Positions 39,101 to 63,747 of a stretch of DNA of 64,000 nucleotides are shown here, in pieces (position 1 is the stretch's first letter; every line of letters starts with the position of its first letter). Position numbers and translations under genes: made by a program. Below the pieces are notes generated by a model, which saw nothing but the letters and a program-made list of their open reading frames with translations, did no database searches and was not told the origin of the DNA. Source of the stretch: Amphiscolops sp. MND2022 (lineage: Eukaryota); assembly GCA_964187785.1 (NCBI GenBank), contig OZ076409.1, positions 15,688,001 through 15,752,000 of the forward strand. The letters run 5' to 3'.

Positions 39101-39192
39101 TTGTTTAGCACTTTATGATCATCGAAAAGTTTCAATAGTTGGCCCCTGAATATTTCAAACAATTTTCACTTTTTGAAGTTTGAGCGGGGTGC
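36121..39192. repeat. Recent tandem duplication, ~1535-bp unit x2
   Basis: 36121-37655 is nearly identical to 37656-39189, with 3-bp TGC microhomology at the junction. ORFs 36154/37689 and 36284/37819 are duplicated. Confidence 0.93.
36758..37572. mobile_element. Two oppositely oriented HINE-like segments (duplicated at ~38293-39106)
   Basis: aaacaagccgggaac...gcgccgactaaaaa (to ~37286), followed by a segment ending gcgccgattttagacgttcccgtcttgttt. Confidence 0.55.
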
Positions 39193-42284: not shown

Positions 42285-43232
42285 CTGAAAAAGAGCAAAG
42301 ATGAACTGGTTTGAGCTAATGACGGTATTAGATTCTTCTTAGACACCATTGAAATTACTCAAAGTTACTTTCGATAAAAAATCCCCTCATGAAATACCCA
42401 TTCAATCCGAGTTCTGCATCCGGAACCATAACAGTGACCGTTCCACGATTCGTACCAAGCTTTCAAGTATTTACAAGATGCGAAGGCGTCTAGAAGATCT
42501 TATTAATTTGAATAATTTATGCAACTTAATTGTCATGCTACAATTATCAGAGAAATCTTAACGGCATTCCGTAATACGAATGGTAGTCTGAGATCCATGA
42601 TTAATCACAATTTTACTACCATACTGTAATAAATGAATTGGACCTCTGATTGCAAAAAATGATTTGGACTCGATTAAAGGAGACCAAAATCTTCTGAACG
42701 AAAGAGTATTTTGGAAAACTGTAAAACTAAAAGTTTAACAAATTTTAACGTTGATTACAAACATTTTTGTCTGAAAATTCTGAGATCAATATACAAAAAC
42801 TTAGAAACTATGCATTTCACTACTAATTTCGTCTCTTACTTGATTTAGTTCAAATTTCGAAAGCCTTGAGCGTTGAAAAAAAATAGTTTTTAATCTTTCG
42901 GACGCTTTTTCAACAAAAGTATCCACTAAAATATTTTTGATTGCAGAACTTTGAAAAGAAACTTTCTTGAACAGGACATTTCAAACAAAGAAACTGAATG
43001 CAATGTATTAAGATAGGGCATAAAATTATTTTTGAAAGAACCCTTATATAATTACAGTTTTCTTCAAGTTTTCTGTAAACAAAACGTATTATCGTCATTA
43101 GTGGATGGATTAGTCTTTGTCAACATTACAAAATTGCAAAATTGCGTCTGTGATACGTCTAATTTTGCAAAAATTTGCTCCTAGATCAAAATTTAGTAGT
43201 AGATACAAGTTGCTGAAAAAGATAATACAAAG

Positions 43233-43967
43233 TGTAGCGATTACCTATCGAGTGCACGATTTCGAAAATTTCGATGAAAATTTCGTTCAAGGGACTATAT
43301 CTCCTCTACTAAAGAGTCATATTCCGCTAGACGGCAGCGTGTCTTTATTCAAGTACCTGCCCACAGAATTGAAGAGAATTTGAGCAAAAGACTCGAGAGA
43401 GACCCCAACCGAACAAGAAGATTGCAGAAAAATACGGCCACTGTCAAAAAAAAAGACTCAAATTCCTGCCAAAACGGACTGAACTTTATTCTAACCAGTG
43501 CTTTCTCCAGCGAAGCGTTACAAGACGCTGTGATTACCAAAATGAGTCAATTAGCTTGACCAAGCATCCGTGCTTGTGTCCCCGGCTAATTGCTGCCTCA
43601 AAAGTGCAAATTATGTAGTAATTTTCGTATTTTCTTGTTGTAACAGCTCGTGAGCTACTCATTTCGATCTCCTGTGTAACTTCGAAAAAACTTGATTTTT
43701 CCTTTCCACCACTTGCATTTTTTAAAGGCTGTCTAAGTGTTGGTTTCGAAGAAAAAGCGTAATGCGCACTACTGATAGCAATTACAGACTGGATCAGGCC
43801 GGCGAGCACTTCACAAGAAGCGGAATCCTCCTCTGACGGGACAGTTTTTACCCGAAAGAGGCAAAATGAGCTCATGGTCATGGGCGCCTGTCCCGGGCAA
43901 ATACCCATATCATGTGTTCCTCTAACTCTTATGGTTACGGCGACAATGGTGAGAGCTTGTCGTTACA
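43233..43967 (+). repeat. 5' LTR
   Basis: TG...CA termini with imperfect terminal inverted repeat (TGTAGCGA vs TGTAACGA). Matches 61728-62462. Confidence 0.95.
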
Positions 43968-43983
43968 TAGAGACATCATTTTT

Positions 43984-44000
43984 TGGCGACCACAGAGGGA
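43984..44000 (+). promoter_or_regulatory. Primer-binding site (tRNA-Arg-like)
   Basis: TGGCGACCACAGAGGGA resembles the complement of the metazoan tRNA-Arg(TCG) 3' end (TGGCGACCACGAAGGGA, recalled). Confidence 0.7.
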
Positions 44001-46358
44001 TCGCTTCGAAGTGCTTCCCTTAATGGTTTTAAAATAGCCGACCCTCTGGTGATTGACGCCAAGTACGACCCGACTCTGATGGAAAGAGGAGAGAAGCAGA
44101 GTTTTTCCATATTTTTACCCTGTGTGTGTTATTGAAGACTTCAACCCCGGTGGATAAAGGTAAATCTTGTAAAAAAGCGTTGTATGTTGTGATTTTCATG
44201 CTTTTTTAGTAGTTGACAGGTAACGATCGAAATAGCCTACCCTCTTAACGGGTCACTCATAAAATTGGTCTAGCAAGCCGCTGGGAGGCTGCTAGAAGTG
44301 TTAACAGGTGTTTTCTAGCCTTTTTCAGCTTTTTATGACCAATGAAGTGAGTGTTGAGAAGAGGATGATCCTTGCTCAGAGGAATCTTACAATCTGCCGA
44401 AACGAGTTATACGACTCACCGATCCCATTTCCCGTACAGGCAACCTAGAGAAATGAAATTTGGTGGAGACGTACTACAAATGCTGACGTGTCTAATGGTG
44501 CAACCTGTTTGTCTCTGGCTGTTCTGGGTGATGAGCAAAAAGAACGAGAAGACACGATTCGTCAGTCCGGGTTGTATGATATTTTTGAGTCAGGTTGAAA
44601 AAATTTTTTGAGTCGCTCAAAATTTTGTGTACGACCATTTGCCAATGTTTTTACGAGCCTTCTGCAACTAAGTGTGTGCTTTTGCACCTATTTTGTGCGA
44701 AAAAAGTGCGTTTTTCATGTATTTTCGACGAAAAGTGCCAAATTTGGCCATTTTGAGGCGAAACACCTACATGAGCGCGAGCGCTCTTGGTGCTAGCCAC
44801 GCACCTGCAGAAATTAAATAAAAGTAGCTCAGGACTCTAACGAGTTCGCAAAAAACGCGACGAAGTACTCAAAGTTGCCCGAGAAGGCACTTAGTATAAG
44901 TTTTGTGAGGAAAAAACCCCGTTTTTGAAAAACTGAACATTTTAGCACTTTGAACTTGTGGGGGAATTTGTGTGGAAGCTTTTAAACACCCCCGTATGGT
45001 TGCAATTAGGTTGGGGTACACCTGCCGGTACCCAACAATACCCATTTTGGTAATTATAACCACTACTTCTTAAAAAAAGTTACGAGAACTGTGATTTTGA
45101 AGTTTTTCTATAGTACTCTTAGAAGAAACCCAACTTGACTATTGACGAACACTTTTACGCTTAGAACAGCCCCAGGGCTATTGTTTTCAGTTTATTCGGT
45201 AAATTTAACGATCTACAGTAAAGACCGCATCCCAAAATTCCTTTTCAGTGCTGAGAAAAGTAGAAAAATGCACTGAAAAACCTCCATTTTCCTAAAATCC
45301 GGACTGTCTCTGAGCTAAGGTCGGGTCATTGATTCTTGGACCTTAGCCAAAAGGTGGTTGCACTTTCATAACCACCACTAAAAATAACGCTAGTGCCGAA
45401 AATTTGGTGGACGTAACTTTCACCAAAATCGAGAAAAGTTCTCTAACATTTCAACTTCAGAGGACTGTAAAACTGCCGAAATAATCTAAAACTGAAGGAC
45501 TGTCGGTGCCTTGTGTTTAACAGACACACCTAATCGAGGGTTTACCCTAGTGCTACGAGTAGTGGGGCAACACGTAGATCCCATTTTTTCAGCCCTACCA
45601 CTTTTTGAGGTGACCCTCTTAGCCAATTTGTAAAAAAAAAAGTAGTCCAAAATTGTTTTTCTTTATGAGTGTTGTCCAAGTAAGGTCGAAACATCAAATA
45701 AGCGTCCGCGCTTTCTTTTGATGGTTTCACCGGCATTGTACACACTCATCGGCTGTAACCACAAAGTTTCATGTCAATCCAACTGGTACTTGATGAGAAA
45801 ATAGAAAAAACGTACCACTCAAAAAGTTGGGCATAGAGGGTAATTTTTCAAATTTTTCCTGAGTGATCCGAGTACCTTAATTGAAAAACGAGGTTGAATT
45901 GCAGTTCATTTCTATCATTTGTACCAGATATTACGTTGTTTTGCAAATTTTGAGCCCGCTAGCTTTTTTCAATGGAGAATAATCTTGAAGTAAGCATGAA
46001 AATTGATGTATCTTGATGACTAAGGGTACCGAACGTCCAGATCAGCCTGAATCTTGAAATAAAAACCTTAGCTTAGACTTAATTTTGCTATCGTGTAGTA
46101 CACCTACCACAAGGTTAGGTGGCCAATTTTCAAGTGTTTCCGACGATTAGACGTTGCGTTCGAGGCATCTTAGTCATTTATAAAGAAATATAAAAAACTC
46201 AAAAATTGTCTAAAAACCCAATTGTTTGCGAATCAGCTATTCCGTAAGCCCCAAACGCACGGTTTCCGGCCCCACACCACGGTATCAACGCGCTGTGTAA
46301 GTTTCACGCCGGTACGACCCCTAGATCGATTTTTGACTTTTTCGAGACGTGCGAAGTC

Positions 46359-49300
46359 ATGAAGCCCAACAGTTTGCGTAACCTTTGGATTTCTATAACG
46401 AGAACATTAAGCCGCACGAACACCCAACGACGCTCTAATCATTCAAAAGGGGGGAGGAAGGACACCTCGCGATGCACTGAAGCATCAAAGACACCAGACC
46501 CAACGGGGTGCGAGACAAATCTCAGTGCGATATCAGACCTGACCTCAGACCCCAGGGAGGAAGATTGGCCAACTGATGACAGTTTCGTTATGGAACCCGA
46601 TTTTTCAGACCCTATGTCAGACGACGCATCGGAGAAGTATCAGGCCAAGCCAATCGCCAGGACTACCGATGATATCGGAGGTTCAGCCGACGAAACAGGA
46701 AGTCAGGCGCACACGTCCAAATGGTTACAAGAACTCACTAAAGTAGCCGTCACACCTTTTGGTACTGACGAAGCAGGAACATGGCCCAATTCCAACAGGA
46801 CAAACGCTGAAGAGGAAGCTGAAATGAGTTGCTTGAATGCCACTGGACAACTCAAAGCTCCCAGCATGGCCAGCGAGAGCACTGCAAACACGGCAGAGAT
46901 ATTGCAACAAATGTCTTATGTCGGGGGTATGAATTATGCCAGGGCACGTCTTCAAGAAGCTACGGCCCCCCGAGCATCTGGGAAGGGTAAGCAAGTACGG
47001 CCTCCAGCCTTACTAGCACAGACCGGCACTACGGGACCTCATGGCGACTCGCGCTCATCCTCACCTTCATCAAAAGCTGCATCTGCCCGATCCTCAGCAT
47101 ATCGAGCCGTACATGAAGCAGCGAAAGCGCGCAAAGCTCTGTTAGATGCCCAGATAGGCGTGAAGCAAGCTGCTTCACAACTGTCTGAGCGTAAAGCAAG
47201 GTGCGATAGAGAGCATCAGTCAATAATGGAGGAGATAGAAGCCGTACAAACTGAACTGCGAACATCAACTGAGCGACAAGCGCAAGGACATGAAATTCAG
47301 GCAGCCCGAATGGATGCCGTGGGTTATCGAATGGCTGAAATAAAGGACATGGTGACCGAAAGAGAGGTGCGCATGGAAGCTCAACTGCAAGAGGTATGTT
47401 CACAGATACAAGCAATGGGCACTATGTTGAAGAATATCCAACCTCAACCCGCACCAGTAAGCAACACTATCAAAGAATTGCTGCAAGACACTGATATATC
47501 ACTGCCAAAACCCATGAAAAGCGTCTCCCTCAAACCAAAAGAGAGTGTGACGATTTCAACAAACCCATCTGGCTCTAAACAACACTTGGCCAGGTACGCG
47601 CCCTTGCCACAAACTCTGGTCTCAAATGGAGAAGCTGCGTCAACATCGACGAAATTTATCCCATCCGCGGTATCAACAAAAAATGTTCCACCCACGACCA
47701 AAACTCACAAGAAAGAACCAACGTGCGAGGTGATAACTATCGACACTTCAAGCATGGGTATCAGCGACCTGCGAGAGCCCACACGCACAAACGTGCTAAC
47801 CGAAGTCACTAGCACCTTCCAAACAGCAAATGCAACTTTGGGAGAATCAGCAGCAGAATTCCAAACCGCGAACGACGAATTACCCCCGGGCAACCCATGC
47901 GCCAGCAGCACTCGACGCCGAGAAGTGACTCTCCCCGAGAACACCGATGACTCTGTCAACTCAACGCGAGGCAGCAGTATCCCGCCACCAGCCATCAGTG
48001 AAGAAGCGCCTATATCACCGGAGCAACTCAGGTTTACCGAGGCAATATCCAAAGCCATGTCCAAGGAACTGGCGCCGCTGATTGCTAATCGAGATCAAAC
48101 TAGGGTGCGCCCTACGATATACAAAGGCACTAAAGATGGTTCTGTCGATGGATGGCTCCCAGTGATGAAGCGATTTCTAGAAAGGGTACATGCAAAATCC
48201 CCAAAGATCGACAGAGCCTGGGCTATCATCGATCACCTGGAAGGAGAGGCAAGAAATTATATAATCAACAAATCTGAACCTGAACGTGACGAGCCCGACA
48301 AGGTATTCTCTCTCTTGGCCAGCAGATTTGGAACCGGTGGAAATCGCATGCACGTCAGGCAAACCTTCATGTCTCGTGTCCAACAGGAAAAAGAGGATTG
48401 GATGCAATTCTTGGACGCATTAGAAGGTCTGCGCACCCAAGGTTTCCCAGACGAGCCTATCACTACGCGTCGTTATGAAATCCTGCAACGTTTTATAGAT
48501 GGTATAAATGACCCGACGCTGCGACGAGAGTTGGCCGTGGTGTACGCTGCAGAGTCATATCTGACCGAGCCACCAACTGTAGAATCCCTAAGGTTCACCA
48601 CGAGACAATTACAACGGCATCGCCCAAACGCGTCAAAACCTTACGACCCAAGGTATGCAATGAGATCGAGGCCTCACCCTTTCGTGCCAGGAAAATTGGT
48701 TCATCCAGCACCAGGCCTACCGCAAAACGTACTACCTCCAAACCAAGGACAACGAGAGGCTAAACCCCAAATGGCTCCACCAGGCCCTGCATCGGTAAAA
48801 CAGGCTCCTGCACAACAGCAACCAGCGAGAGTGATTCCCCAAGGAGCATGCTTCAACTGTGGACTACCAGGTCACTTTGCAAGGGAATGCCCAAGTCGAG
48901 ACCTAGCAAGGAAACCAGCGGCTCGCGCTGCACCCGAAGAGCGAGTAAACTTATGCGAGAATAATGTGGCCTCTGCATGTTCTGGCCCCGTATTCTGTGT
49001 AAATTGTGGCATGACCGAACACTCTGCATCACAGTGCCAAAATGTTCCAGTACATGAGGATTTGGCCTACAGCCTCTGGGCTGAACAGCCATCTGCTTCT
49101 CAAACAATGAGTGACAGCGAAATGGTACTCATGCTTCGCCCTGCTGAAGCCGCTCACGTGACGACGCCCCTTACCGTCACATGTGGCAAAATCCAAATCC
49201 AGACGAACCCGGAGCCAACTACTTTTGATCCCTCGGGACGCACTATCATGTCTGTCCGATTACTATTGGCGATTGAGAGAGAAACCCGCCCAGAACTCAC

Positions 49301-52300
49301 CATAGACGCTCTGATAGACGAGATAACCGCAAACAAGAATTGCCGACAATTGACCCTGCCCCAACCGGAAGAATGGCAGGTAAAAGGCGTCACTTCGACG
49401 TATCATGCCTATTCTCCGATTCCAGTCAAAGTTTGCATAGATGGTGTTGACATGCGTTTTGGTGCCACTATCATTACTGACGCGTTTCCTCCTGGAATCT
49501 GCTTGGGACCGCAGGAGCTGCGCTGCTATAACATTGATGCTCAAGAACCAACTGGTGAAGCGAGAATCGATGAGCGTGCGTCGCTCGTAGTTTCATTCGT
49601 GGTTCCCGATGCTGCTCCCGTGCCATTACGTGGTCTGATAGACACTGGATCAGGAGTGTCCATCCTCACCTTCTCAGCCTACAATCGAGTCGCCGTGCGC
49701 ACTGGGACACTCTTACGACCTTATGGTATTGACTTATATGCCGCGAATGGGAAGACGATCAAAACTTTTGGTCTAGCGGAGAAAGTCAAATTCCAATTGG
49801 GAGGCTACGAATTGGAAACTAACTTCGTGGTAGTCGATGACGCCATGGGAGTGGAAGACTTCCTCCTGGGCAGAAACTTCCTAAGAGCTTATCAAGTCTT
49901 AGTGGATTTAACCGCGATGAAGGTCATTGTCCGAGCTCCGTCTGAACCAGTGTGGTACCATGCCCACACACAAGTAAGTAACGAATCACTCAATTCGTCG
50001 GTAGCGATTGCACAGGACGTAGTGTTGCAACCTTTTGAACGCGCAATACTACGCGCTAAATTGCTTGTAGACAACTTAGAACCTTTCATGTTTCGGACCG
50101 TGCTAATCAATTTTCAAACACCTAACCGAATGTTAAAAAACGCCATCTTTTTAGAGGACACCGTGGCGACCGTGGGGGAGACTGGCTTCCTTTACGTCAG
50201 TTTAGGAAATCTTACCAGCAACGTGCAGCGGATTAAAAAGGGCACCCTTTTAGGAACCGCGGTACCTGTAACGATGGTTCATAAAGCCATCCCCCAAATT
50301 GTCCCCGGACAATCAAGTGAAACTCAGCAGTCAAATGCAAATTATGTTTGTAAAGTTTACGAACAGATGAACCTTGATTCTTCTTCTGAATATAGTTCTT
50401 CATCTGAATTTGAGTTTTTGTCCTCTACCGAACCGTCAGAACTAGGCTTGTCCGAGCGCGAAGTAAAAAGACGAACCGATCCGGCGTTAATGGCTCCGAT
50501 ACCGGGCCCGGAAGCACAACTCGACGAGGTGCGCGGTTTGTGGGGATCGACCGCCAGCGACACGCTTAGTAAACTTTTGAACGAATTTGATGATTTGTTT
50601 ATGAAATTCAAAGCCGACATTGGCAAGTGTAAAATCGCTAAGCACCCGGTGGAAGTAGAGCCAGGGGCTGTACCCCACCGCGAAGGTGCAAGACGAATGT
50701 CGCCTGACAAGGCAGAACGTGCTAACCAAGAAGTTCGTGACTTGCTAGCTTTGGGAATGATACAACCTTCCTTATCCCCTTGGGCGAGTGGAATTGTTAT
50801 GGTCAAAAAGAAGAGTGGTGAATTGCGATTCTGTTGTGATTTTCGGCCACTTAATGAAGTGACCATCAAAGACGCTTATCCCTTGCCACGCATCGATGAA
50901 AGTCTATCCCGATTGGGCAAGGCCAAAATCTATACTAGTATTGACTTGGCATGGGCATTCTGGCAAATTCCTGTCCGAAAAGCCGATCGTCAAAAGACTG
51001 CCTTCGCTTGTGAACTTGGGTTATTTGAGTGGCGGCGTATGCCTTTTGGTATGTGTAACGCATCAGCAACATTTCAACGGGCAATAGCGCGAGCGCTACA
51101 AAGAATAGTGAACCGTGAAGGAAGTATGGTTATGGCCTACATCGATGACATTGTGATTGCTACCGAGACCATCGAGGATCACATGGATAGACTACGCGAA
51201 GTATTCCAATGCCTGCGTGAGGCCGGGTTCAAAATGAGAGTCTCCAAGTGTGACTTCATGAAATCGGAGATCAAATATTTGGGCCGGGTCGTATCCGCAG
51301 ATGGTATCAAGCCAGATCCAAAAGCTGTCACCAAGCTGAAAGAATGGGATATCCCGCGAACCAAGACTGAATTGCAGAGTTTCTTGGGTTTTGCCAACTA
51401 CTATCGGGATTTTATCCCGTGGCATGCAAAACTAGTTGCCCCTTTACACGCGATAACGGGAGGAGCCTCTTCATTTTTATGGGGGGAGGAGCAGCAGCGA
51501 GCCTTCAACAGCATCAAAGTGGCACTAATGGAAGCCACTGCTCTGGCGCAACCCGACACTGAAGGCGAATTTGTTCTCGACACAGATGCTAGTGGTGTAG
51601 CTATATCGGGTATTCTGCACCAATGGCAAGGACCACCTGAGAGTCGCAAACTGCGACCGATTGTATTCGGAAGCAAAAAATTAACTGCTACGCAAGCAAA
51701 GTATGGAGCCCCAAAATTGGAAATGTATGCTGCATACTATTTCATCTTGAAAAACCACAGTTATCTCTGTCCACGAAAGTTCACACTGAGGGTAGATAAT
51801 CAGGCCCTATCCTGGCTAAAAACATATTCGATGGATCAGGCGATTATCGGTCGATGGATTATGGCTCTTGAAAAATATCACTTCAGTATTGAGCACCGAC
51901 CCAGAACGCAACATCGAAATGCTGACGGTCTTAGCAAACGAACAAATGATTACAAAAAACACGAAAAGCAACTAAAGGGTTTACCCGCAATTGCAGACAA
52001 ATGGGATTTCCTATCACAGGAGGAATATAACAAACTCCCGCTAGCCCCATGGTTCGATGTCCACGGACGTGTGATACCAAATCACCCAGAATTGCCTGCA
52101 CACTTGCAGAGGTTGGGTAGCCAAAGTTCACCCGAGACCACAGTTGCCGTTCCCACGCGAAGGAGCGGACGAAGCAAACGAAATGCGACCATACGCGACG
52201 AAGCCATGAGAGCGCCCCTACCTACATTGCCAAAACCAGAATTGACACTGCCTGCCGAACTTTATCCAGAATATCCTGAGGATTGGTTGGAACTGACCGA

Positions 52301-55300
52301 GGAATATCAACGAGACTATTTACTCCCCACGCATGCTGCTAACGTACCATCAAGAACCACTTACCCATTGACGGAAAAGCAAGCAACTAGCACTGCACCA
52401 GAGCACGTGAAACAAGCCGCGTTCGTGGTAAACAGCATATCAATGGAACTGCATGAACATGCTAACACAGTACATGGGTTGAAGGATCTACTACTAGCAC
52501 AAAACCGTGACGTCCATATATTGGCTATCAAGAAATTGGTAATGCAAGAATCAATAGATAATGACGTCTTTCCGGAGAATGTACGTGCCTTTGCCAAAAA
52601 CTACCACAAACAGAAGAAGAACCTTCTACTAATAAACACCAACGGGATTTTGTGTGTAAAATACTCCAAAAGTCAAAGAGCTTTGCATGAACGCCCCTGC
52701 ATGATAGTGATGCCACAATTGTATCAGCATGAGATACTATTCAAGGCCCATGACGCGATGGGACATCAGGGCATCGCGAAAGACTTGGCCAGAATTCAAG
52801 AGCGCCACACTTGGCCAGGCATCCGCCGCACCATTGGACAATACGTCAGCCAATGCATCACTTGTCAACAAGTACGCGACAAGCCTGGTGATGTACGCTT
52901 TCACTTGAAGAATATCCAAAGCGGTTATTTCAACGAGCTAGTCCAATATGACCACATGAAAATTTGTCCCTCTGATGATGGTAACACAGGGATATTGGTT
53001 ATTATCGATCATTTCTCTAAACTCGCAGAAGCTGTGCCGTGCAACCACGATGAGTATGATGCAGCGACCACTTCAAAGTTGTTGTTGCAGAAGTGGTTTG
53101 CCCGCCATGGAACACCGACGAGGATGCAGTCAGACAATGCTCCCAATTTCACCGCGGCAGTATCTGCTGAGTTTATGAAAGCAGCCCAAGTGACCAAAGT
53201 AACCTCAACTGCTGGCCACCCCAGGACTCAAGGGTTGGTAGAGCGACAAAACCGAACGCTACTCACCCTACTGCGTGTATTCTGCTCTAGACGAATGCGT
53301 GACTGGGATCAGTACCTAGATGAAGTTATGGGTGCATACAACTCCACACGTCATGCCACGACTGGATTCTCCCCGTATATGCTGACCAGAGGCATGGAAA
53401 AAGCTATACCCCTGACTTTCTTGTATCCAGAATTTGCAACTCAGTCATTCGAATCACACGAAGCCTATGTGGAACATGTGCTGGCTCGACAACAAGAGAT
53501 TCATGACTTAGTCCGTCGCAACACGCATCAAGCCCAGCAACGACAAAAATTGAAGTACGACAGAGCAATTCGTGCTAAAGCCTACGAAGTGGGCGAACCT
53601 GTTTGGGTATTCTGCCGATACATTCCTCAAAAGGGATCTCCTAAATTGATGAGAGCGTGGCGTGGTCCTCACAAGGTAGCACGAGTGCTACAAGAGGGAC
53701 GTGTCTACATACTTGACACTGGTCAGAAGGTGCATTTCGAACGATTGAAACCGCATCATGGTGGTCCAACAGAATGGGCAGCTGTTCCTGCGCATAACGG
53801 CGAGGTTGCTATCATCATGGACCCTGATCCAGAACAATCCCATGAGGAGGTGAGAGACGATGCTTCGCAACCTTCTTACCGTGCAGAGGAACCAATTTCA
53901 GAAGCCAGTAATGCCTCTTTGCCTTCTCGACAAAGACATTGGATGGACACACGGTTACGCACACACATGCGCGCAGGTGGCAGCCGCCTACACTATCAAC
54001 AATTTGGCTACTCTTCGACTGAGTCTGACGATGAACGTTCTGATGTACTCCTATCGAGTGTTCAGGCCAGTCCTGATGAAAGTGTTATCTTGTCATCACA
54101 TGTAGATGAACCTGCGCCTATTCCCGAAATGCCAATATCACCACTACCTGCTATGGAGGCTCTGTTCTCAGAGAATGAAGCAGTACCCGACGCATTGGAC
54201 ATCACCCCGGATCCTACTATCCACGTACCCACCAAAAGTGCCGCCACCTCTTTGACCGGTACATCCGCCCCATTATTGACAAATCCATCTCTTACGGATA
54301 TGTTGAGTAACTTTCCCATTTGGCCCCTAATCGATGACAATGTTCTCAACCCAACCCTAGACGACAACGGTGCTGAAATACCAACAACCAATAACGAAAA
54401 GGGATCGATTCCCCCTGCGACAGTTCCCACCAACAACAATGCAGCTACTACCACGAAACTCTCCAATGCTCCTAGAGGGCGTGGACCCCGGGGACGTCCG
54501 CCAGGCAGAGCGAGGCCGCGAGCCTCGCTGCCACGTGGTCACCAACGGAGAGGTGCTATTAGAGGCGCTCGCAAAAGAGGCCGTCCCAGAGGTAGACCTC
54601 CTCGTATAACGCACGCCAGACCTAACACTCCTACCCGTGTTCGTAGCACTCCATCTATGGACACTGACTCTTCTGCCCCTAGCGCGGCGGTTACCTCAGA
54701 TCAAGCAGCACCGCCAGAATCAACCAACGCTCGTTATGGACTGCGACACAATCGTATTCCCAGATATCGTTGCGGAACATGTGGCCTACGAGACTGCGAA
54801 TGTAACTACATGGTCCACGCGGGCTTCCCAATCAAACCCCAGGGAGTCCTGCTAGCACGTGAACAGGAAAAATCGCTTCCAAGCGGAACGGTTGACCGTT
54901 TGGTTATTCGGGCCGAGAAGACTTATACTGGGCTACAACGCAGCGACACTCCATATCCCGTGGACTATATCCTATCCAAAATGAAAGATTCTACGATAGC
55001 AAAGGCCCCGTGCCCAAGGTTCAAGGAGTGGACCTATGATCTTGTTGGTTTGGAGTTCACCTTACCCATCACTGTTCCCCCTTTGCCTACAAATATTGCC
55101 TTTGGTCCTTTCAACTACGAGCGAGAGCCTATCCAAATGATACGCTGTATTCCTGCTGACCTCTTGTATGACAAATACAACGTCACCGCAAAACCAGGAG
55201 ACGTTTATCAGCCTACAAGCAACTGGTGGCTACTAGTTACGGCCAAACAAACATCCGACCTGGTTCATCCCTCTAACTTGAACACCTGTCTGGAGAGTTT

Positions 55301-56126
55301 GCGGACGATGGCCTCTCCTGATAGAATCACTTGTTTCCACACCATAGACCTATATCGTGGTAAAATTAAGTTTGAATGGTGGCTGGAACTTATTATAGCG
55401 GTCTTATCGAATTTTTCACGAATCAGATTCCTGGACGAATGGACACACTCATTTCCTAGTTCTGTATCGCTCCAATCGGCCCTGCACGCACTGGATACAT
55501 GGTCCAGGGCTAATATTGATAATCAATCATTGCCGCGATCTGTGTGGCAAGACTTGGGCGCAATCAAAGGCCTCCTCCCGAATACATGTAACGATGCTCT
55601 CTCCAAAGACCCCGGACGAGAGTTAGTGTACCATGGAGCCGTGAGACCTCAATTGGTTGACTATGTGCAGTATGCCAATACGGACTTCCTGCAGACTCCC
55701 CATCACATTGTTTTATGTTGTCCCGCAAATCTGGAAACTAGTTCTGCCGCTCTTCGTTACGTCATTCTTGAGCATGGTGCAGATGCAATCTTTCAACTTC
55801 GACCGGAGGTTGGCAATATTGTAACGCTACCCACATCTTTGATAGACGGCCATCCTCAGACTATCCACCTTTTAATCACACGAGCTACACCTCGCTGCCC
55901 TATGCTCGCTGATATTCTCCTTGGATGTCTTGATCATTTGAAAACGTTACTCGAGCGCTTGGAGGCGATAGAAGTACACTTTGCCATCATTGATCCTGAG
56001 CGCCCAATACGTAATCTTTTCGATTTTTATACCTGTTTGATGGACGTATTCGCCGACACCCCCCTGACCGTCGTTCTTCACGATCGCGTTTACGTATCTA
56101 TTGCAAGCGTCGCTAGCTTTCCGTAA
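46359..56126 (+). CDS. Gag-Pol polyprotein, 3255 aa, with accessory C-terminal domains
   Basis: Capsid-like ~48110-48620. Two CCHC knuckles (48849-48890, 48996-49037). Protease LIDTGS (49641). RT YIDD (51138). RNase H DTDASG...NADGLS (~51570-51935). Integrase HHCC and D(52950)-D(53133)-35-E(53241). GPY/F-like WRGPHKV (~53660). About 780 further aa follow. Confidence 0.97.
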   Translation: MKPNSLRNLWISITRTLSRTNTQRRSNHSKGGRKDTSRCTEASKTPDPTGCETNLSAISDLTSDPREEDWPTDDSFVMEPDFSDPMSDDASEKYQAKPIARTTDDIGGSADETGSQAHTSKWLQELTKVAVTPFGTDEAGTWPNSNRTNAEEEAEMSCLNATGQLKAPSMASESTANTAEILQQMSYVGGMNYARARLQEATAPRASGKGKQVRPPALLAQTGTTGPHGDSRSSSPSSKAASARSSAYRAVHEAAKARKALLDAQIGVKQAASQLSERKARCDREHQSIMEEIEAVQTELRTSTERQAQGHEIQAARMDAVGYRMAEIKDMVTEREVRMEAQLQEVCSQIQAMGTMLKNIQPQPAPVSNTIKELLQDTDISLPKPMKSVSLKPKESVTISTNPSGSKQHLARYAPLPQTLVSNGEAASTSTKFIPSAVSTKNVPPTTKTHKKEPTCEVITIDTSSMGISDLREPTRTNVLTEVTSTFQTANATLGESAAEFQTANDELPPGNPCASSTRRREVTLPENTDDSVNSTRGSSIPPPAISEEAPISPEQLRFTEAISKAMSKELAPLIANRDQTRVRPTIYKGTKDGSVDGWLPVMKRFLERVHAKSPKIDRAWAIIDHLEGEARNYIINKSEPERDEPDKVFSLLASRFGTGGNRMHVRQTFMSRVQQEKEDWMQFLDALEGLRTQGFPDEPITTRRYEILQRFIDGINDPTLRRELAVVYAAESYLTEPPTVESLRFTTRQLQRHRPNASKPYDPRYAMRSRPHPFVPGKLVHPAPGLPQNVLPPNQGQREAKPQMAPPGPASVKQAPAQQQPARVIPQGACFNCGLPGHFARECPSRDLARKPAARAAPEERVNLCENNVASACSGPVFCVNCGMTEHSASQCQNVPVHEDLAYSLWAEQPSASQTMSDSEMVLMLRPAEAAHVTTPLTVTCGKIQIQTNPEPTTFDPSGRTIMSVRLLLAIERETRPELTIDALIDEITANKNCRQLTLPQPEEWQVKGVTSTYHAYSPIPVKVCIDGVDMRFGATIITDAFPPGICLGPQELRCYNIDAQEPTGEARIDERASLVVSFVVPDAAPVPLRGLIDTGSGVSILTFSAYNRVAVRTGTLLRPYGIDLYAANGKTIKTFGLAEKVKFQLGGYELETNFVVVDDAMGVEDFLLGRNFLRAYQVLVDLTAMKVIVRAPSEPVWYHAHTQVSNESLNSSVAIAQDVVLQPFERAILRAKLLVDNLEPFMFRTVLINFQTPNRMLKNAIFLEDTVATVGETGFLYVSLGNLTSNVQRIKKGTLLGTAVPVTMVHKAIPQIVPGQSSETQQSNANYVCKVYEQMNLDSSSEYSSSSEFEFLSSTEPSELGLSEREVKRRTDPALMAPIPGPEAQLDEVRGLWGSTASDTLSKLLNEFDDLFMKFKADIGKCKIAKHPVEVEPGAVPHREGARRMSPDKAERANQEVRDLLALGMIQPSLSPWASGIVMVKKKSGELRFCCDFRPLNEVTIKDAYPLPRIDESLSRLGKAKIYTSIDLAWAFWQIPVRKADRQKTAFACELGLFEWRRMPFGMCNASATFQRAIARALQRIVNREGSMVMAYIDDIVIATETIEDHMDRLREVFQCLREAGFKMRVSKCDFMKSEIKYLGRVVSADGIKPDPKAVTKLKEWDIPRTKTELQSFLGFANYYRDFIPWHAKLVAPLHAITGGASSFLWGEEQQRAFNSIKVALMEATALAQPDTEGEFVLDTDASGVAISGILHQWQGPPESRKLRPIVFGSKKLTATQAKYGAPKLEMYAAYYFILKNHSYLCPRKFTLRVDNQALSWLKTYSMDQAIIGRWIMALEKYHFSIEHRPRTQHRNADGLSKRTNDYKKHEKQLKGLPAIADKWDFLSQEEYNKLPLAPWFDVHGRVIPNHPELPAHLQRLGSQSSPETTVAVPTRRSGRSKRNATIRDEAMRAPLPTLPKPELTLPAELYPEYPEDWLELTEEYQRDYLLPTHAANVPSRTTYPLTEKQATSTAPEHVKQAAFVVNSISMELHEHANTVHGLKDLLLAQNRDVHILAIKKLVMQESIDNDVFPENVRAFAKNYHKQKKNLLLINTNGILCVKYSKSQRALHERPCMIVMPQLYQHEILFKAHDAMGHQGIAKDLARIQERHTWPGIRRTIGQYVSQCITCQQVRDKPGDVRFHLKNIQSGYFNELVQYDHMKICPSDDGNTGILVIIDHFSKLAEAVPCNHDEYDAATTSKLLLQKWFARHGTPTRMQSDNAPNFTAAVSAEFMKAAQVTKVTSTAGHPRTQGLVERQNRTLLTLLRVFCSRRMRDWDQYLDEVMGAYNSTRHATTGFSPYMLTRGMEKAIPLTFLYPEFATQSFESHEAYVEHVLARQQEIHDLVRRNTHQAQQRQKLKYDRAIRAKAYEVGEPVWVFCRYIPQKGSPKLMRAWRGPHKVARVLQEGRVYILDTGQKVHFERLKPHHGGPTEWAAVPAHNGEVAIIMDPDPEQSHEEVRDDASQPSYRAEEPISEASNASLPSRQRHWMDTRLRTHMRAGGSRLHYQQFGYSSTESDDERSDVLLSSVQASPDESVILSSHVDEPAPIPEMPISPLPAMEALFSENEAVPDALDITPDPTIHVPTKSAATSLTGTSAPLLTNPSLTDMLSNFPIWPLIDDNVLNPTLDDNGAEIPTTNNEKGSIPPATVPTNNNAATTTKLSNAPRGRGPRGRPPGRARPRASLPRGHQRRGAIRGARKRGRPRGRPPRITHARPNTPTRVRSTPSMDTDSSAPSAAVTSDQAAPPESTNARYGLRHNRIPRYRCGTCGLRDCECNYMVHAGFPIKPQGVLLAREQEKSLPSGTVDRLVIRAEKTYTGLQRSDTPYPVDYILSKMKDSTIAKAPCPRFKEWTYDLVGLEFTLPITVPPLPTNIAFGPFNYEREPIQMIRCIPADLLYDKYNVTAKPGDVYQPTSNWWLLVTAKQTSDLVHPSNLNTCLESLRTMASPDRITCFHTIDLYRGKIKFEWWLELIIAVLSNFSRIRFLDEWTHSFPSSVSLQSALHALDTWSRANIDNQSLPRSVWQDLGAIKGLLPNTCNDALSKDPGRELVYHGAVRPQLVDYVQYANTDFLQTPHHIVLCCPANLETSSAALRYVILEHGADAIFQLRPEVGNIVTLPTSLIDGHPQTIHLLITRATPRCPMLADILLGCLDHLKTLLERLEAIEVHFAIIDPERPIRNLFDFYTCLMDVFADTPLTVVLHDRVYVSIASVASFP

Positions 56127-56348
56127 AGCTTTTGTTTTTCCGCTTTTTTTTGTTTTTGTTTTTTATCCGCTCGATTAAGTTTAGTGAGTCGACACGGAGT
56201 TTATGTGAAACTGTTACGTTACCATTTTCTTTAATGTTAGTGTGTGACATTATATTACTTTCCCTGATATTACCCTTAAAATGACCTATGGTGTTGCCCA
56301 ACTATCAAGTGTGCTACAATCGACCTGCACTCTTTCAGAATTGTCGTC

Positions 56349-59300
56349 ATGAACCAAGATAACGATAGAAGCAACAACGTCCCGCCAAGGTCTACAGATA
56401 ACTCTCCTGCCTTGGGGCAACGCGTCTATGACACTGCGCGTGTCCAACGCACCCCACAAATTGCCTTTATTCGAGACAGACTCGACCAAGGTCTGTCGCC
56501 AGCTACAGTTGCCGGGGTGGCGGCAATCATTGCCCAGATGGAATCACAATTGCAAGCCCCAATGCTGACGATATCAATTACTTCAGGGTTTCCTGGGTTC
56601 CAACGATCCATGACATACCAAGATGGAGTGTGGCACGGCCATGATCTCACGCATCACTTCACGGATGATCGTGCGGCGATCTCATACAGTCCTGCGAATG
56701 GCGGAGTCCATCAGACTAGACCTCTACAGATCCCTTCTTGCCCGCCTCCACCTCCACCGCCACCTCCTGCATCAACACCACAAGCAGTAGTGCGTGCGCG
56801 CACTCCTGCTCCTACAGTGCCTGACTTGCCCAATCAATCTATGGCGGAGCAAGCAGTCATCTCAGCACTGCAAGCAGTGGCTGCCAACCCCAATTACGAT
56901 GATTTCATGCGATCCATGGAGCAGTGTTGGCCAGAACTACGTCGAATTGCTCTGCCCACTGTCACTATTCGCAACGACAATGTGACTTCAACTGAAACAC
57001 GTCAAGGTGTCATCACTATTCCCCACATCAATCCTCAGTCTGAACAGCCAGGACACTCTCGCACCGTGACTGTAGAGCGCAGTCGTTCGCCTTCCCGCTC
57101 TTCTCAAAAGGGGGGAGGAGAGAGCCGCCCTGCCTCAAGAAAACGCAACGACCCTTCTCCAACAAAAAAGACTCAACAACCACTGACTGCCCGTGACAGT
57201 CCCTCGAGCAAGCCACCACCCGACAAAAAGATCTCCAACGAGAAGGCCACAACCTCCAAAGCGCCAGACCAAACAAAATCAAAAGTGTCGGAAGCATGCG
57301 TGCTTCCCTCACCCCAATCACAACCGGACGTAACAGGCGAACAACAAGGACTGCCGCAACCACCATCCACGCAGTCTACAACACGCGAGTCGCTGGCTCA
57401 ACGAGCGACTCCTAAGCCTTCCACATCAAGACAGCCACAAACGGAGCAAACTGTGGGTTATCAAGGCACCCCTGAATCTCAGCGAACTGTCAAGGACATA
57501 ATGGGTGATTACCCAGGGTTGAAGGTAACCAACAGTGGTCCAACTGGAACCCCACTCCGCAAACAGGCGATTCAACACCCAACTAAGAGAACCTTTACGA
57601 AACAGCCGACGTACCTGAGTCCAATGCAAAACACAAAGGGCACACTGGTCACCAAGGATTCCCGACGTATCTGGGAATCGGCAGTTATAGTATCGCCCGA
57701 ATGGCTATTTGAGAAGAACATGTGTCCTCCGAATGACGAAGAGCATGCGAAATTGAAGAAGGCGAATGTACCTGCATTCATGAATCGTCCAATCCGCCCC
57801 GACCACACCCCTACCAATGAGCCGCCATGGCTAGGGAAGGCAATGAATATGCTGCCAAACGTGGAAGACAATTACTTGGACGCCGTCAACATTGACCTTC
57901 GTGGGCAATTCGCTGATCGATATTTCCTCAACGCTGGAGAGACCTTCGAGATCAACCCACGGTACGCCCGTGACCTCGAAGCCCAGCTACCAATGCCAAA
58001 AGAAAGGTTGCAGCGTGCGCGCTTCGCCTTACTTATAGACTCAACATTCCTCAAGAATGTCCCCATTGACAATGTGCTGTCAGACGTGATGGTTTTTACT
58101 CTACCGCTGTCACGTATTCCCGAGATGGCCGAAGTGTTGGTCACCATGTTTGACCCTGAGATGACAGGAACCTTCAAAGAGCCACCCCCACGCAGAGTGA
58201 TCATCAGCAACGTTTTCGATCACATGGCCTGTGAAGGACTAATGGCCCAGATCGCGAACGTTGAAATTATAAATCCAAGTCCAGCACAGCGAACAACAGT
58301 ACGCAATGCAGCATTGAACATGGCCCGAGCCATGGAAAAAGCCCAAAACATCTTAAAGGATAAACTCAAGGTGCCAGCCCTGTTCGTGACACCCCCAGGT
58401 TTCTGCCAATGGCCTCCCGCCTTGCAGAGATTTATCTACATGGTAACAGAAGTTTGCAAGTGTAGAGAAATAGACTTTGCGATCTGCGCGCCCAATATGC
58501 GGATCGGCTCCAACGACTTTCGTCCCTCCTGGCTTTCCTACATGGGGTATGTTGCCTCAGTGTCTAAAGTGCTACAGTCAGTGGAAAAGACTGGGAACGC
58601 GCAGCTGACAATCGATGATGCCATCTACTTTGATCACGGCACTCGTATGGGATTATTAGTATTCAATAACGACGGAGAAAGGCGAGTCCCAGAACCCAGT
58701 ACGGCTGAATGTGAGGCAATCCGCCTGAATAACTGGATAGAGCGCGCGCGCTCCTCCGGTGGAAAGACTTGCATTAAAACTGATCTTGCGGAAGTCACTG
58801 CCATGATGAGCAAAGTCCCCAGTGACCGAGAAGTAGAACGAGCCATCCCGCGAGTTCAATTTGCCAAGGACCTCACAATTGATCAATTATCAGTGGGAAT
58901 GAAGTACATTGCTGCAAAATTGACGAGCGAGACTCAGGCTGAAATACAAGCCTTCAGCAGCACCTACGACGCCTGGTACCAGCGGCTACAAACTACCACT
59001 GTAGCAGACATTGCAAAAGAACTTGGGATGTCAACCGACCAATTTGCCATCTGTTTGGGATTGGGTTGGAGTCCCGATGTTATTCGAGTTGAGTTCGATT
59101 TAGACGAGAACTGGTTGATCGAAATCAGCAAGATTATCGGTACCATGCAGATAAACGAACTCTTTGCACTGATGCTCACTTTCGGGCAGAAACGCTTTGT
59201 AGCTGGCCCAATGATGATATTAACCGACCTGGTTACCGAGTGTAATCTGGAATGGCTATTTTCATACTTAGTGATTGCACGAGGGAATATCTCAGGCCTC

Positions 59301-60716
59301 GCCGCCTTAGCCAAGTTGTTGCAACGAAAAGACGCTCAGGATTATCCCGCTCACCTGGAGCGCATGACAACTTCGTTACATCACTGGATATATTGCAGTC
59401 TGGTCTTTGCCTCGGGACTTTTCGTGGGGGTGGATAAGCACCAACCATTATATGACGGACGTCAGCTAGTGACCGAGGTAGCCGGATTTTTGACACCTAA
59501 CCAGCTGGCAGATTTCACTTTGGCTGAAGTCGAAGATCTCGTACCGGTGTTAGCACCCGTGCTAACTCCGATATTTGGCCCAACCGGGATACTTCGCTAT
59601 CCCACCAAGCCTCTGCGACTGGCCTCGGAGACACTAACAGTATCCATCCTGACTTATCTGAAGAACGTGAAACCGCACAACTATCAACAGATGCTTGAAC
59701 GTGGGCTGTTTCTGCTAGTACCCCGCATGTATACCACCATAAAGAATGAGACGCAGCAAGACGAAAACCTGGCCGGTATTCTCAAAGCCCGAACAAAGAA
59801 GGCGTGCCCTTTACCTCGCGAATACGGCCCGGTGAATTGGTACAATTCGCCCCTAGATCACCTTGGAATCCCACAGCGATTCAATTGGAGTTTCGCACAC
59901 CTCAGGAAGTACGTGACTGAATGCGTGCAAACCATGGGCGGTCACACAAATCAGGAGTATAATTTTCAAATGATCAAGCTTCCAGCCAGGTACTGGCGAG
60001 GACCCATCGGTTATATCCGGGCTAAGCCAATCAGCATGGTCGAGAAGGGCTTTGATGAGCAGTACGCCTATCGCGATCACTACAAACTAGGCGTGTGGAT
60101 GTCAAGGACCCTGGAGGAACGCCAAGGGCGCCTAAAAGGTTTGATCATCCCCCCACTGACAATGCCTGTTTGGAATCCAGAGGCGAGGGTTACTATGGGA
60201 AGCGACATGCCAGCGGAGACTTGCTACCACGTCATGGAATTGCTGAATGATCCCCTCGGACCCGAATGGGAAGCCTCCAGGCAAATTATAGAACATGCAA
60301 ACAGGGACAACTGGTCCAGAGCCTGCGGGCTCTGGGGCCGACCTGATCTACGTCCGAAACTCAGTGCGAAACAGAAACGACCCATTGCCACCCGCAATAG
60401 ACCGCTGGATCTACCGCACCTGTTTAATGCCAGTAGATTGGATGTGCAGATCCCAATCTCCACGTCGACCACAAGTTCTGCCAATGTTAGCGGCTCAGCC
60501 AATGCAGCGCAAGAACATTCGCCAGAAGCCTCAACTCCTGTAGCCGCAGAAAATGGCCCTAGTGGCTCAAACACGGCTCCCAGGACCCATGAAACTACCA
60601 GCGCCGAACCAAAGCCAGTCCTGCGAGAAGGAAATGCGCGAAGAGGATCTCTATCCGAACTGCAACCAAAGGCCGACGTCTCCCCCAGAGCGCGTCACTC
60701 CTCCGCCACCCAGTAA
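56349..60716 (+). CDS. Second ORF, 1455 aa, function unknown; Pro-rich disordered N-terminus and a central SGNH/GDSL-like fold
   Basis: Uninterrupted 4.4-kb ORF between pol and the 3' LTR. Block-like motifs FALLIDS / VFTLPLSRI / VIISNVFDH / SNDFRPSWLSY at 58020-58573. Confidence 0.85.
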   Translation: MNQDNDRSNNVPPRSTDNSPALGQRVYDTARVQRTPQIAFIRDRLDQGLSPATVAGVAAIIAQMESQLQAPMLTISITSGFPGFQRSMTYQDGVWHGHDLTHHFTDDRAAISYSPANGGVHQTRPLQIPSCPPPPPPPPPASTPQAVVRARTPAPTVPDLPNQSMAEQAVISALQAVAANPNYDDFMRSMEQCWPELRRIALPTVTIRNDNVTSTETRQGVITIPHINPQSEQPGHSRTVTVERSRSPSRSSQKGGGESRPASRKRNDPSPTKKTQQPLTARDSPSSKPPPDKKISNEKATTSKAPDQTKSKVSEACVLPSPQSQPDVTGEQQGLPQPPSTQSTTRESLAQRATPKPSTSRQPQTEQTVGYQGTPESQRTVKDIMGDYPGLKVTNSGPTGTPLRKQAIQHPTKRTFTKQPTYLSPMQNTKGTLVTKDSRRIWESAVIVSPEWLFEKNMCPPNDEEHAKLKKANVPAFMNRPIRPDHTPTNEPPWLGKAMNMLPNVEDNYLDAVNIDLRGQFADRYFLNAGETFEINPRYARDLEAQLPMPKERLQRARFALLIDSTFLKNVPIDNVLSDVMVFTLPLSRIPEMAEVLVTMFDPEMTGTFKEPPPRRVIISNVFDHMACEGLMAQIANVEIINPSPAQRTTVRNAALNMARAMEKAQNILKDKLKVPALFVTPPGFCQWPPALQRFIYMVTEVCKCREIDFAICAPNMRIGSNDFRPSWLSYMGYVASVSKVLQSVEKTGNAQLTIDDAIYFDHGTRMGLLVFNNDGERRVPEPSTAECEAIRLNNWIERARSSGGKTCIKTDLAEVTAMMSKVPSDREVERAIPRVQFAKDLTIDQLSVGMKYIAAKLTSETQAEIQAFSSTYDAWYQRLQTTTVADIAKELGMSTDQFAICLGLGWSPDVIRVEFDLDENWLIEISKIIGTMQINELFALMLTFGQKRFVAGPMMILTDLVTECNLEWLFSYLVIARGNISGLAALAKLLQRKDAQDYPAHLERMTTSLHHWIYCSLVFASGLFVGVDKHQPLYDGRQLVTEVAGFLTPNQLADFTLAEVEDLVPVLAPVLTPIFGPTGILRYPTKPLRLASETLTVSILTYLKNVKPHNYQQMLERGLFLLVPRMYTTIKNETQQDENLAGILKARTKKACPLPREYGPVNWYNSPLDHLGIPQRFNWSFAHLRKYVTECVQTMGGHTNQEYNFQMIKLPARYWRGPIGYIRAKPISMVEKGFDEQYAYRDHYKLGVWMSRTLEERQGRLKGLIIPPLTMPVWNPEARVTMGSDMPAETCYHVMELLNDPLGPEWEASRQIIEHANRDNWSRACGLWGRPDLRPKLSAKQKRPIATRNRPLDLPHLFNASRLDVQIPISTSTTSSANVSGSANAAQEHSPEASTPVAAENGPSGSNTAPRTHETTSAEPKPVLREGNARRGSLSELQPKADVSPRARHSSATQ

Positions 60717-61717
60717 AACAAACCTAACATTGTCGTCATTCGATTTCCAACTTCAATAGTCTTATGCTAGATGAACTTTTGCGAAATCTCATGGTTTCAA
60801 TCTCTGTTGTTGCTAAACTTCGATTATGGAAGTGCCAATTGGTCATGGGTAAAAATCTCCAAGTGGAGATGAAGCCCCCGGGCTTCATCCTCCTTATTAT
60901 TCCGTTTTGGGACCGGCAACCCAACCATGAAACTGCGTCTTTGCCTTGCCTTAGTTAGATGCAATATTCAATTTGCAATTTGTGTTTGCAGTTAGTGCTT
61001 TTTCATGCTACCTTATGCTACATGTGGATGCGCTGTGCGCACTCCGTGCTCTAAATTTTCGGTGCTATTACACCCTTTCAGTTACTAGTTATTGTTTACA
61101 CTGTTGCCATTGTCGAAAAAGACAAAAAGAAAAGATGAAGGAAAAGGAAACAAAAAGGGAGAGATGAGAAATGAATAGAATAAAAAGATTGATGAACCTC
61201 GACCATTGTTTTTCTTGAGCTACCTGATAGGATCGAGAGTAAGTCTCGCAAAAGAAATTTTAAATTGACCGTACTAATTGATTGATTTTATGGCAACTGC
61301 TTACCAAAAGAACTTTTATCAAACGCCAAGCAGTGCGAAGCTCCCGAGCTTCGGAAAATATGTTTCGAACAGTCATGTGATGGTCGTTGACCTTAAAACA
61401 AGTTTTAACACTAACGGCAAATAAAGAATTTTTTTTGAATGGCCGAAAAGAAATTTTAACGCCTGAATTGCTCACGACAGGCTACAAAAAGTAATGACCT
61501 TGCCGTATAAGATTTGTATACAAAATTGTATTGATTTGATCAAAATGCAGCAACGCTGGGTCAAAAACAATTCCACGAGGCCAACTTGACGATGTCTCAA
61601 TGAACTGCCCAGCGCTACTTGATGTGCACTCTACCTCCTCAGTGGGACACAGATGACTCTGGGTACAGACTCGATGACGCCAACCCACACTTGACGGGGA
61701 CGTCAAGACTAGACCCC

Positions 61718-61727
61718 GGGGAGTGTA
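61718..61727 (+). promoter_or_regulatory. Polypurine tract (short)
   Basis: GGGGAGTGTA immediately before the 3' LTR. Confidence 0.6.
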
Positions 61728-62462
61728 TGTAGCGATTACCTATCGAGTGCACGATTTCGAAAATTTCGATGAAAATTTCGTTCAAGGGACTATATCTCCT
61801 CTACTAAAGAGTCATATTCCGCTAGACGGCAGCGTGTCTTTATTCAAGTACCTGCCCACAGAATTGAAGAGAATTTGAGCAAAAGACTCGAGAGAGACCC
61901 CAACCGAACAAGAAGATTGCAGAAAAATACGGCCACTGTCAAAAAAAAAGACTCAAATTCCTGCCAAAACGGACTGAACTTTATTCTAACCAGTGCTTTC
62001 TCCAGCGAAGCGTTACAAGACGCTGTGATTACCAAAATGAGTCAATTAGCTTGACCAAGCATCCGTGCTTGTGTCCCCGGCTAATTGCTGCCTCAAAAGT
62101 GCTAATTATGTAGTAATTTTCGTATTTTCTTGTTGTAACAGCTCGTGAGCTACTCATTTCGATCTCCTGTGTAACTTCGAAAAAACTTGATTTTTCCTTT
62201 CCACCACTTGCATTTTTTAAAGGCTGTCTAAGTGTTGGTTTCGAAGAAAAAGCGTAATGCGCACTACTGATAGCAATTACAGACTGGATCAGGCCGGCGA
62301 GCACTTCACAAGAAGCGGAATCCTCCTCTGACGGGACAGTTTTTACCCGAAAGAGGCAAAATGAGCTCATGGTCATGGGCGCCTGTCCCGGGCAAATACC
62401 CATATCATGTGTTCCTCTAACTCTTATGGTTACGGCGACAATGGTGAGAGCTTGTCGTTACA
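61728..62462 (+). repeat. 3' LTR
   Basis: 735 bp. One substitution seen versus the 5' LTR (gtgcaaatt vs gtgctaatt). Confidence 0.95.
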
Positions 62463-63747
62463 AAGCTCCAAAATTGTTTGCAAAACAGATTCTGAAGTGT
62501 TTTCACAAATTTAATAATATTTGATCAAGCGTTTTTTGATTACCTTCAAAATCATTCGGGTTTCGAGCTAATTTATTTTCAGACCAAATCATTTTTTACA
62601 ATCAGGGGTCCAATTCATTTATTACAGTATGGTACGTTTTCACTGCGATAAAAACTATAGTATTGCGTCGAGTGAATAAAATCAGCATCCAAAGGAGTTA
62701 GCAAATAAGAATCACCAACGACTCATTCAAATTAAACAAACGACGACCAAAGAATGTTACATGTGCACAAAATCATATGCGGCGTTCGCTTCCACTTTCA
62801 ACCCAAGCTACCATTTCGTTAACATTAGTTGAGATTTGCTGTAACAAGCTAATCAATTTCTACTGGTTGTTCGTTCAACATATGCTTCATTTAACGCGGA
62901 ACGGTGTATGTGGGGAAACATGTACACTTTTTTGTTTGTACCTGTAACTGAAGGACCAAAGAGTTGAATAGAAGGGTCACTTGTTCATTAGAATGCGATT
63001 GCGTTTAGCGCCGCGCATCCAACTTGAAAGGCACGAGAAAGTAACATAAAGAACACAATGGAAAAATCTTGAACGGATTGGAATTACAAATTTAGGTCGG
63101 TCTTACAGCCACAAACGTCAAAGATACTGCAGCGTTCGGCAGTTTTTTTGACGCTTTATCATCTCTTAGAAAAACGATGTTGATAGGATTTAAGCATGTG
63201 ATCAAAAAAACTGCCGCACTCTACATCATCTTTGACGTATTTGGTGGCTGTCAGGCCTTACATTTGTAAGACCAATAAATTCATGTTTTATGTGATACTT
63301 AAATTGTTACTGAAAAATTATATTGATAAGAATCAACCTCTCGTGGTAAGATCACGATTGGCAGTTTTGGCAATATAATTGAAGTATACCCAACTGGAAT
63401 CAGTCATTCGTATCAGATCAAAAAATACCGTAAAATACAGAATACCGTAAACCCCTTGGAAAATTTTACAATGCATTTTGAAAGTTGTGAATGATTTATT
63501 TTCGTATTATGACTTGAATTCTCACAATATTAGCATCGCGGATATGCTGTTTTCGGTCACATCTCGTATAATCTCGGAGTATTTGACCTCGGAAACATCT
63601 TTGGTGAAAACAATTCAAACGTTTGATTGAAACATTTGTCGATAAAAAATTCCTTTCCTCAGAATGAAAAAGTGTTCAAAGGAGGGATGTTTTTTCCCAA
63701 AAAAGCAGTCAAATGGTTGTTCATCAACAGTTTATATCAAGGCTAAC

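Follow-up and report, generated by a model that had tools for sequence, protein, structure and literature searches.

Open reading frames (ORFs) that encode SGNH/GDSL esterase-type domains in the slot of the env gene are known from long terminal repeat (LTR) elements of bdelloid rotifers, where the catalytic residues are intact (PMC5408684). In the accessible text of that source, restated in PMC6431247 and PMC5718144, catalytically dead GDSL derivatives are noted in rotifers only in the Penelope-like Athena-L elements. Biochemical work on an SGNH domain from a retroelement exists for ZfL2-1 alone; this domain binds anionic lipids but not RNA, and its catalysis is poor (PMC3905857). Here we describe a 64,000-nucleotide stretch of contig OZ076409.1 of Amphiscolops sp. 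MND2022 (positions 15,688,001 to 15,752,000 of the forward strand; hereafter the window), which contains only two long ORFs. One of these, ORF2 (56349-60716, 1455 aa; + strand, like all features of the LTR element given below), is present as first called in an earlier reading of the letters alone (the original prediction). It is enclosed in an intact LTR element of 19,230 bp (43233-62462), and is predicted to include an SGNH-fold domain with an altered active site.

The rotifer Vesta ORF3 (Rodriguez, Kenefick, Arkhipova 2017, PMC5408684) shares with ORF2 the placement of an SGNH/GDSL ORF after pol in a Ty3/gypsy-like element, where it replaces env and lacks a transmembrane (TM) anchor, and where a spliced RNA has likewise been proposed as its source. 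However, rotifer ORF3s retain S, G, N and H (PMC5408684), whereas ORF2 has other residues in place of His, Gly and Asn, with an Arg now fixed. Unlike in Vesta, to which ORF2 is likened by description and not by sequence, the SGNH part forms about 200 aa of a multi-domain protein of 1430-1500 aa, which additionally contains an unmatched helical domain and is borne by 19-kb high-copy elements. ZfL2-1 ORF1p (PMC3905857; PDB 4c1b) likewise represents a retroelement-borne SGNH fold and is among the Foldseek rows for the ORF2 SGNH model (rank 14, probability 0.25), but it is a small, active enzyme (S143/D279/H282) with a basic membrane-binding face, encoded by a Gag-position ORF of a long interspersed element (LINE). 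Like the fold predicted for ORF2, the OSK domain of Oskar from Drosophila (PDB 5a4a) has SGNH architecture without a catalytic triad, whereas the catalytic subunits of PAF acetylhydrolase Ib and the TesA-like hydrolases, at 7-13% identity to ORF2, have the full triad. As structural rows within 1 Z are tied, no SGNH subfamily can be assigned. Burro from planarians and Ogre from plants are similarly oversized, high-copy gypsy-type elements with a long polyprotein bearing accessory domains, and extra ORFs; they differ in that Burro has env-like and apoptosis domains inside Gag-Pol and Ogre owes its size to its LTRs, and the accessible text of PMC6431247 names no esterase for either. An SGNH ORF in the env slot of an LTR element is a kind already known, and PMC6338049 and PMC10741241 contribute nothing further. 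What is new, as far as our literature search shows, is a triad-less, Arg-fixed version that forms part of a 1450-aa protein, together with a helical domain lacking a structural match, in several 19-kb families that amplify at the same time.

ORF2 as a conserved gene of a high-copy element

ORF2 starts 222 nt 3' of the pol stop, in the slot of env in errantiviruses and retroviruses. A search of the host assembly (eukaryotic, 1.07 Gb) with the ORF2 core gave 2,989 first-look candidates, a figure which is not a copy number; 150 of these were scored, and all 150 matched at 97-100% identity with no internal stop. For a second family (P0003, 44% identity over the core), the 150 scored matches likewise all lay at 96-100%, and further subfamilies and families of ORF2 were also found. 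The 15 other copies that were fetched had been picked for long open ORF2 frames and are hence a biased sample as regards intactness. Each is an element of 18.5-19.7 kb in which ORF2 follows pol and the LTRs are paired, although one 5' LTR matched only in part. Counting the window element, all 16 inspected loci lie within LTR elements as a separate ORF downstream of pol.

When the window element is compared with a sister copy, the ratio of non-synonymous to synonymous substitution rates (dN/dS) is 0.030 for aa 1-130, 0.097 for the linker, 0.027 for the SGNH part and 0.043 for aa 751-1345, at dS of 0.16-0.24. In more distant pairs, where dS is close to saturation, most segments gave 0.02-0.12. 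ORF2 is thus a real functional gene under purifying selection. Identity falls in parallel in the reverse transcriptase (RT; 97, 92 and 78%) and in the SGNH part (85, 48 and 35%), and therefore ORF2 dates back to a common ancestor of the families and was inherited together with pol. A library-wide search recovered 437 relatives at E <=0.001, mainly fragments, whose sources, where given, are unnamed ENA proteins. The matches of P0245 in the host assembly are all <=33%; therefore the ORF2 family occurs in at least one other genome. The 735-nt LTRs of the window element (5', TGTA...TACA, 43233-43967; 3', 61728-62462) differ at a single base, and the element belongs to a young, high-copy, 19-kb Ty3/gypsy-type lineage in which ORF2 is a conserved second gene.

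That ORF2 might be a passenger or a recently captured host gene, with no role for the element, is largely refuted and scarcely credible: nothing was found in its favor, dN/dS is 0.03-0.04, divergence follows RT, every inspected locus is inside an LTR element, and there was no sequence similarity to the 25 loci fetched from among the 39 matches to canonical GDSL/SGNH domains in the host assembly (best E 0.06). Several of these canonical loci are multi-copy ORFs of about 300 aa with G-D-S, G-x-N-D and D-x-x-H intact, and are probably other mobile elements. Another alternative is that ORF2 suppresses host silencing or immunity, with the helical domain binding a host factor and the SGNH fold serving as a protein-binding surface. 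The simultaneous amplification of several ORF2-carrying families to high copy would fit such a role, as would the far faster divergence of ORF2 than of RT or integrase between families; however, within a family every segment is under strong purifying selection, unlike a typical arms-race interface, and we consider suppression quite improbable.

Predicted domains and pocket residues of ORF2

The N-terminal part of ORF2 comprises a conserved block (aa ~30-125, 56436-56723; dN/dS 0.03) with the motif W-x-G-x-D-L-T-x-x-F-x-D-x-R, followed by a likely disordered linker (aa 131-440, 56739-57668) that varies between families. The poly-Pro tract and S/T/P/Q-rich region that had been pointed out there were recovered, the former from aa 132 (56742) and the latter as 47% S/T/P/Q over aa 130-440. 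Four SGNH-like motifs also lie where they had been placed: LLIDS at aa 561 (58029), PLSRI at aa 586, VIISNVFDH at aa 617 and NDFRPS at aa 722. Although Pfam, PDB-sequence and profile searches did not detect an SGNH resemblance in ORF2, its predicted structure shows an alpha/beta/alpha fold with five parallel strands that agrees with solved SGNH structures, and aa 556-747 (58014-58589; N-terminal extension from aa ~506) are accordingly predicted to adopt the SGNH esterase fold, as had been guessed. A viral fusion glycoprotein fold was not among the structural matches listed for the models, which cover ORF2 beyond aa 500.

In the structural alignment ranges, residue 1 of TesA is paired with model residue 56 and residue 179 with model residue 247; assuming an ungapped first strand and last helix, Ser10 and His157 of E. 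coli TesA would correspond to Ser565 and Arg725. With this register, and the SGNH block definitions of PMC10792757, we surveyed the pocket in 15 lineage representatives (codons in the window: Ser565 58041, Asn621 58209, Asp624 58218, Arg725 58521). The block I nucleophile appears kept as D564-S565 in all 13 representatives covering the site. The block II oxyanion Gly is absent (Leu587 in ORF2; Gly in 1/15), N-x-hydrophobic-D replaces G-x-N-D of block III throughout (15/15), with the canonical oxyanion Asn gone, and in block V the conserved acid is absent while Arg725 stands in place of His in 15/15, the substitution already noticed in the original prediction. As blocks II, III and V are altered, the canonical triad and oxyanion hole would be gone, which suggests a loss of canonical catalysis. 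The site-lining residues are nevertheless fixed in proteins that are just ~25-45% alike, and this therefore points to altered function and not to decay. The most distant homologue, P0235, retains the block II Gly (MPGST) and is a possible intermediate between canonical SGNH domains and the ORF2 family.

These residues could alternatively belong to a non-canonical enzyme, in which the Ser acts as nucleophile or acyl carrier and the His-Asp pair is replaced by Arg725/Asn621 or by a base that comes from the substrate, from a partner or from the helical domain; it might be an acyltransferase or deacylase acting on a lipid or a host defence protein. That Ser565 stayed invariant although the His and the oxyanion residues were exchanged speaks for this, the more so as OSK, a known dead SGNH domain, lost its Ser (PMC10792757), and it is joined by an invariant Asn621, one position off the usual oxyanion Asn, and by His625, kept in 13/15. 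Yet the canonical position lacks a general base, the oxyanion Gly and Asn are absent, and His625 is Asp or Tyr in 2/15; we regard such an enzyme as unlikely.

The roughly 700 aa downstream of the SGNH part, left unassigned in the original prediction, are now resolved in part. An all-helical domain is modelled at aa ~835-1085 (58851-59603), with a predicted local distance difference test score (pLDDT) of 82-97 over most of aa 840-1020 and family-invariant W, GP, SG, GF-x-x-P, PIFG and RYP motifs. A structural search with the model matched no solved structure, and the domain is a candidate new fold. The remainder (aa 1086-1455, 59604-60716) is weakly modelled, with one long helix (aa ~1289-1329) and a low-complexity tail.

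Proposed role and expression

We tentatively favor, at somewhat less than even chances, a reading in which ORF2 is a soluble, non-catalytic, acyl- or phospholipid-binding scaffold that tethers RNA-protein particles to membranes. Its SGNH module, no longer a standard esterase, would bind acyl chains or phospholipid and thereby anchor the particles of the element at membranes during assembly or transport, with the disordered linker and helical domain possibly serving as the scaffold. Because the ZfL2-1 domain already shows lipid binding with poor catalysis, only a short step would lead to a Ser/Arg pocket without the triad. ORF2 would be made as a cytoplasmic protein from a spliced subgenomic RNA, in the manner of env and the rotifer ORF3s, which is the simplest reading of its expression: a putative splice acceptor, consisting of a pyrimidine tract and CAG (56325-56338), ends 10 nt 5' of the ATG, and TTT(T/C)AG lies 6-12 nt 5' of the ATG in all five copies examined, which represent each family group by one or two. 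The tract passes a 7-of-10 pyrimidine cut-off in three of the five, against 8-10% of random leader windows.

Several points weigh against this lipid-binding role. Half of ORF2 is without an assigned fold and could hold the main function; the readings are not fully exclusive, as the helical domain could have a separate task of its own. Lipid binding and membrane localisation are putative. The profile-profile comparison with canonical SGNH domains of the host assembly gave a probability of 0.4, not above shuffles, with a thin template profile (Neff 2.6). The residue register comes from range offsets and a by-eye block alignment rather than coordinate distances. The two Asp residues are structural in every SGNH fold (PMC10792757), and therefore only Ser, Asn621 and Arg inform on a ligand. 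Finally, with 23 K/R against 19 D/E the domain is without the marked basic excess described for ZfL2-1.

The original prediction had proposed an accessory protein that binds RNA or lipid, and is supported in part: its fold agrees with structure prediction, and we prefer the lipid role to the RNA role, which we hold to be rather unlikely. In the latter, ORF2 would resemble OSK: its dead SGNH domain would be RNA-binding and would act with the disordered linker to seed granules in which the 19-kb RNA is protected and packaged, a proposal which accords with the OSK-like triad loss, the long low-complexity linker and the very long genomic RNA with its 2.4-kb leader.

Given the env position and a conserved hydrophobic stretch, ORF2 might also substitute for an envelope by remodelling or breaching membranes for cell-to-cell passage of particles, a role proposed for the rotifer GDSL ORF3s (PMC5408684, PMC6431247), and spread between cells without env is reported for Drosophila (10.1101/2025.03.14.642691). 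However, a Kyte-Doolittle scan of ORF2 found neither an N- nor a C-terminal hydrophobic segment, as had been noted before, and a motif scan found no furin-type site (R-x-K/R-R), so that by hydropathy and motif scan the signal peptide, C-terminal TM anchor and cleavage site of retroviral and errantiviral Env proteins are lacking. The single hydrophobic stretch is internal and Pro-rich (aa 1064-1082, score 1.73; 2.3-2.6 in two homologues) and had gone unmentioned earlier. In the rotifer study itself, an env-like nature was considered unlikely for GDSL ORFs that lack TM segments or coiled coils (PMC5408684), and we deem an envelope substitute very unlikely.

Element structure, target sites and significance

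The window element has paired TG...CA LTRs, a primer-binding site (PBS)-like sequence and a polypurine-tract-like GGGGAG (61718-61727) immediately 5' of the 3' LTR, all Ty3/gypsy traits. The PBS-like site TGGCGACC... (43984-44001), which is putatively tRNA-Arg-like, starts 16 nt past the LTR end and is followed by a non-coding 2.4-kb leader (44002-46358) without any ORF >=150 aa. Gag-Pol (46359-56126) is a single frame of 3255 aa with a CCHC knuckle, protease, RT, RNase H, integrase and a tail of ~900 aa, the order being of the Ty3/gypsy type by Pfam. In this tail (~54400-56126) we observed GRPRGRP motifs of AT-hook type and a C-x2-C-x4-C-x-C knuckle that is conserved, as well as ~430 aa at 41-82% identity across families, which by eye resemble two degenerate macro domains; the ~430-aa segment had zero Pfam or PDB-sequence matches. 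Between protease and RT (~50000-50300), a segment that by eye is degenerate-dUTPase-like, in the same position as in rotifer and Burro elements, had no Pfam match.

Ty3/gypsy target-site duplications (TSDs) are usually of 4-6 bp, a usual though not defining trait. The window element is flanked by AAG (43230-43232 and 62463-62465). Across it and the 15 other elements, with LTR ends fixed at TG...CA and one 5' end unreadable, a 3-bp flank repeat was found in 14 of 15 readable copies, from all families, and repeats of 4, 5 or 6 bp in none; one copy (98.4% LTRs) is without a TSD. The lineage thus departs from the norm, and our literature search found no paper on 3-bp LTR-element duplications. Retroviruses usually have 0-3 nt between LTR and PBS; here the PBS-like site begins 15-17 nt past the CA of the LTR in 16/16 copies (window spacer 43968-43983), and in one family group the PBS differs (TGGCGCCCC...).

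Inverted arms of 54 nt (42617-42670 and 62581-62634, 94% complementary) flank the LTR element, which was therefore likely inserted into a terminal inverted repeat element of roughly 790 bp. Elsewhere in the window there are an older-copy remnant (33315-33565, 93.6% identity to the final 250 nt of the LTR), near-identical tandem duplications (5064-13352, 4.1-kb unit, 99.0%; 36121-39192, 1.5-kb unit, 99.7%) and inverted repeats (3357-3938).

These features raise the rather improbable but broader prospect of a distinct giant-LTR clade, combining a 3-bp-stagger integrase with a third type of env-slot protein, a Ser/Arg SGNH domain whose chemistry or lipid specificity would be new, coupled to a new-fold helical domain, which together would move or assemble 19-kb particles on membranes instead of using an envelope. 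If the 3-bp TSDs hold genome-wide, the integrase geometry would be unusual, and annotation tools demanding the default 4-6 bp would miss such elements. SGNH esterases have been captured repeatedly by retroelements (LINE ORF1, rotifer ORF3, Terminons), and in these catalysis and lipid binding have not yet been separated. With the triad apparently removed, the pocket fixed and the families still amplifying, ORF2 would make binding, as opposed to hydrolysis, testable on a small soluble domain.
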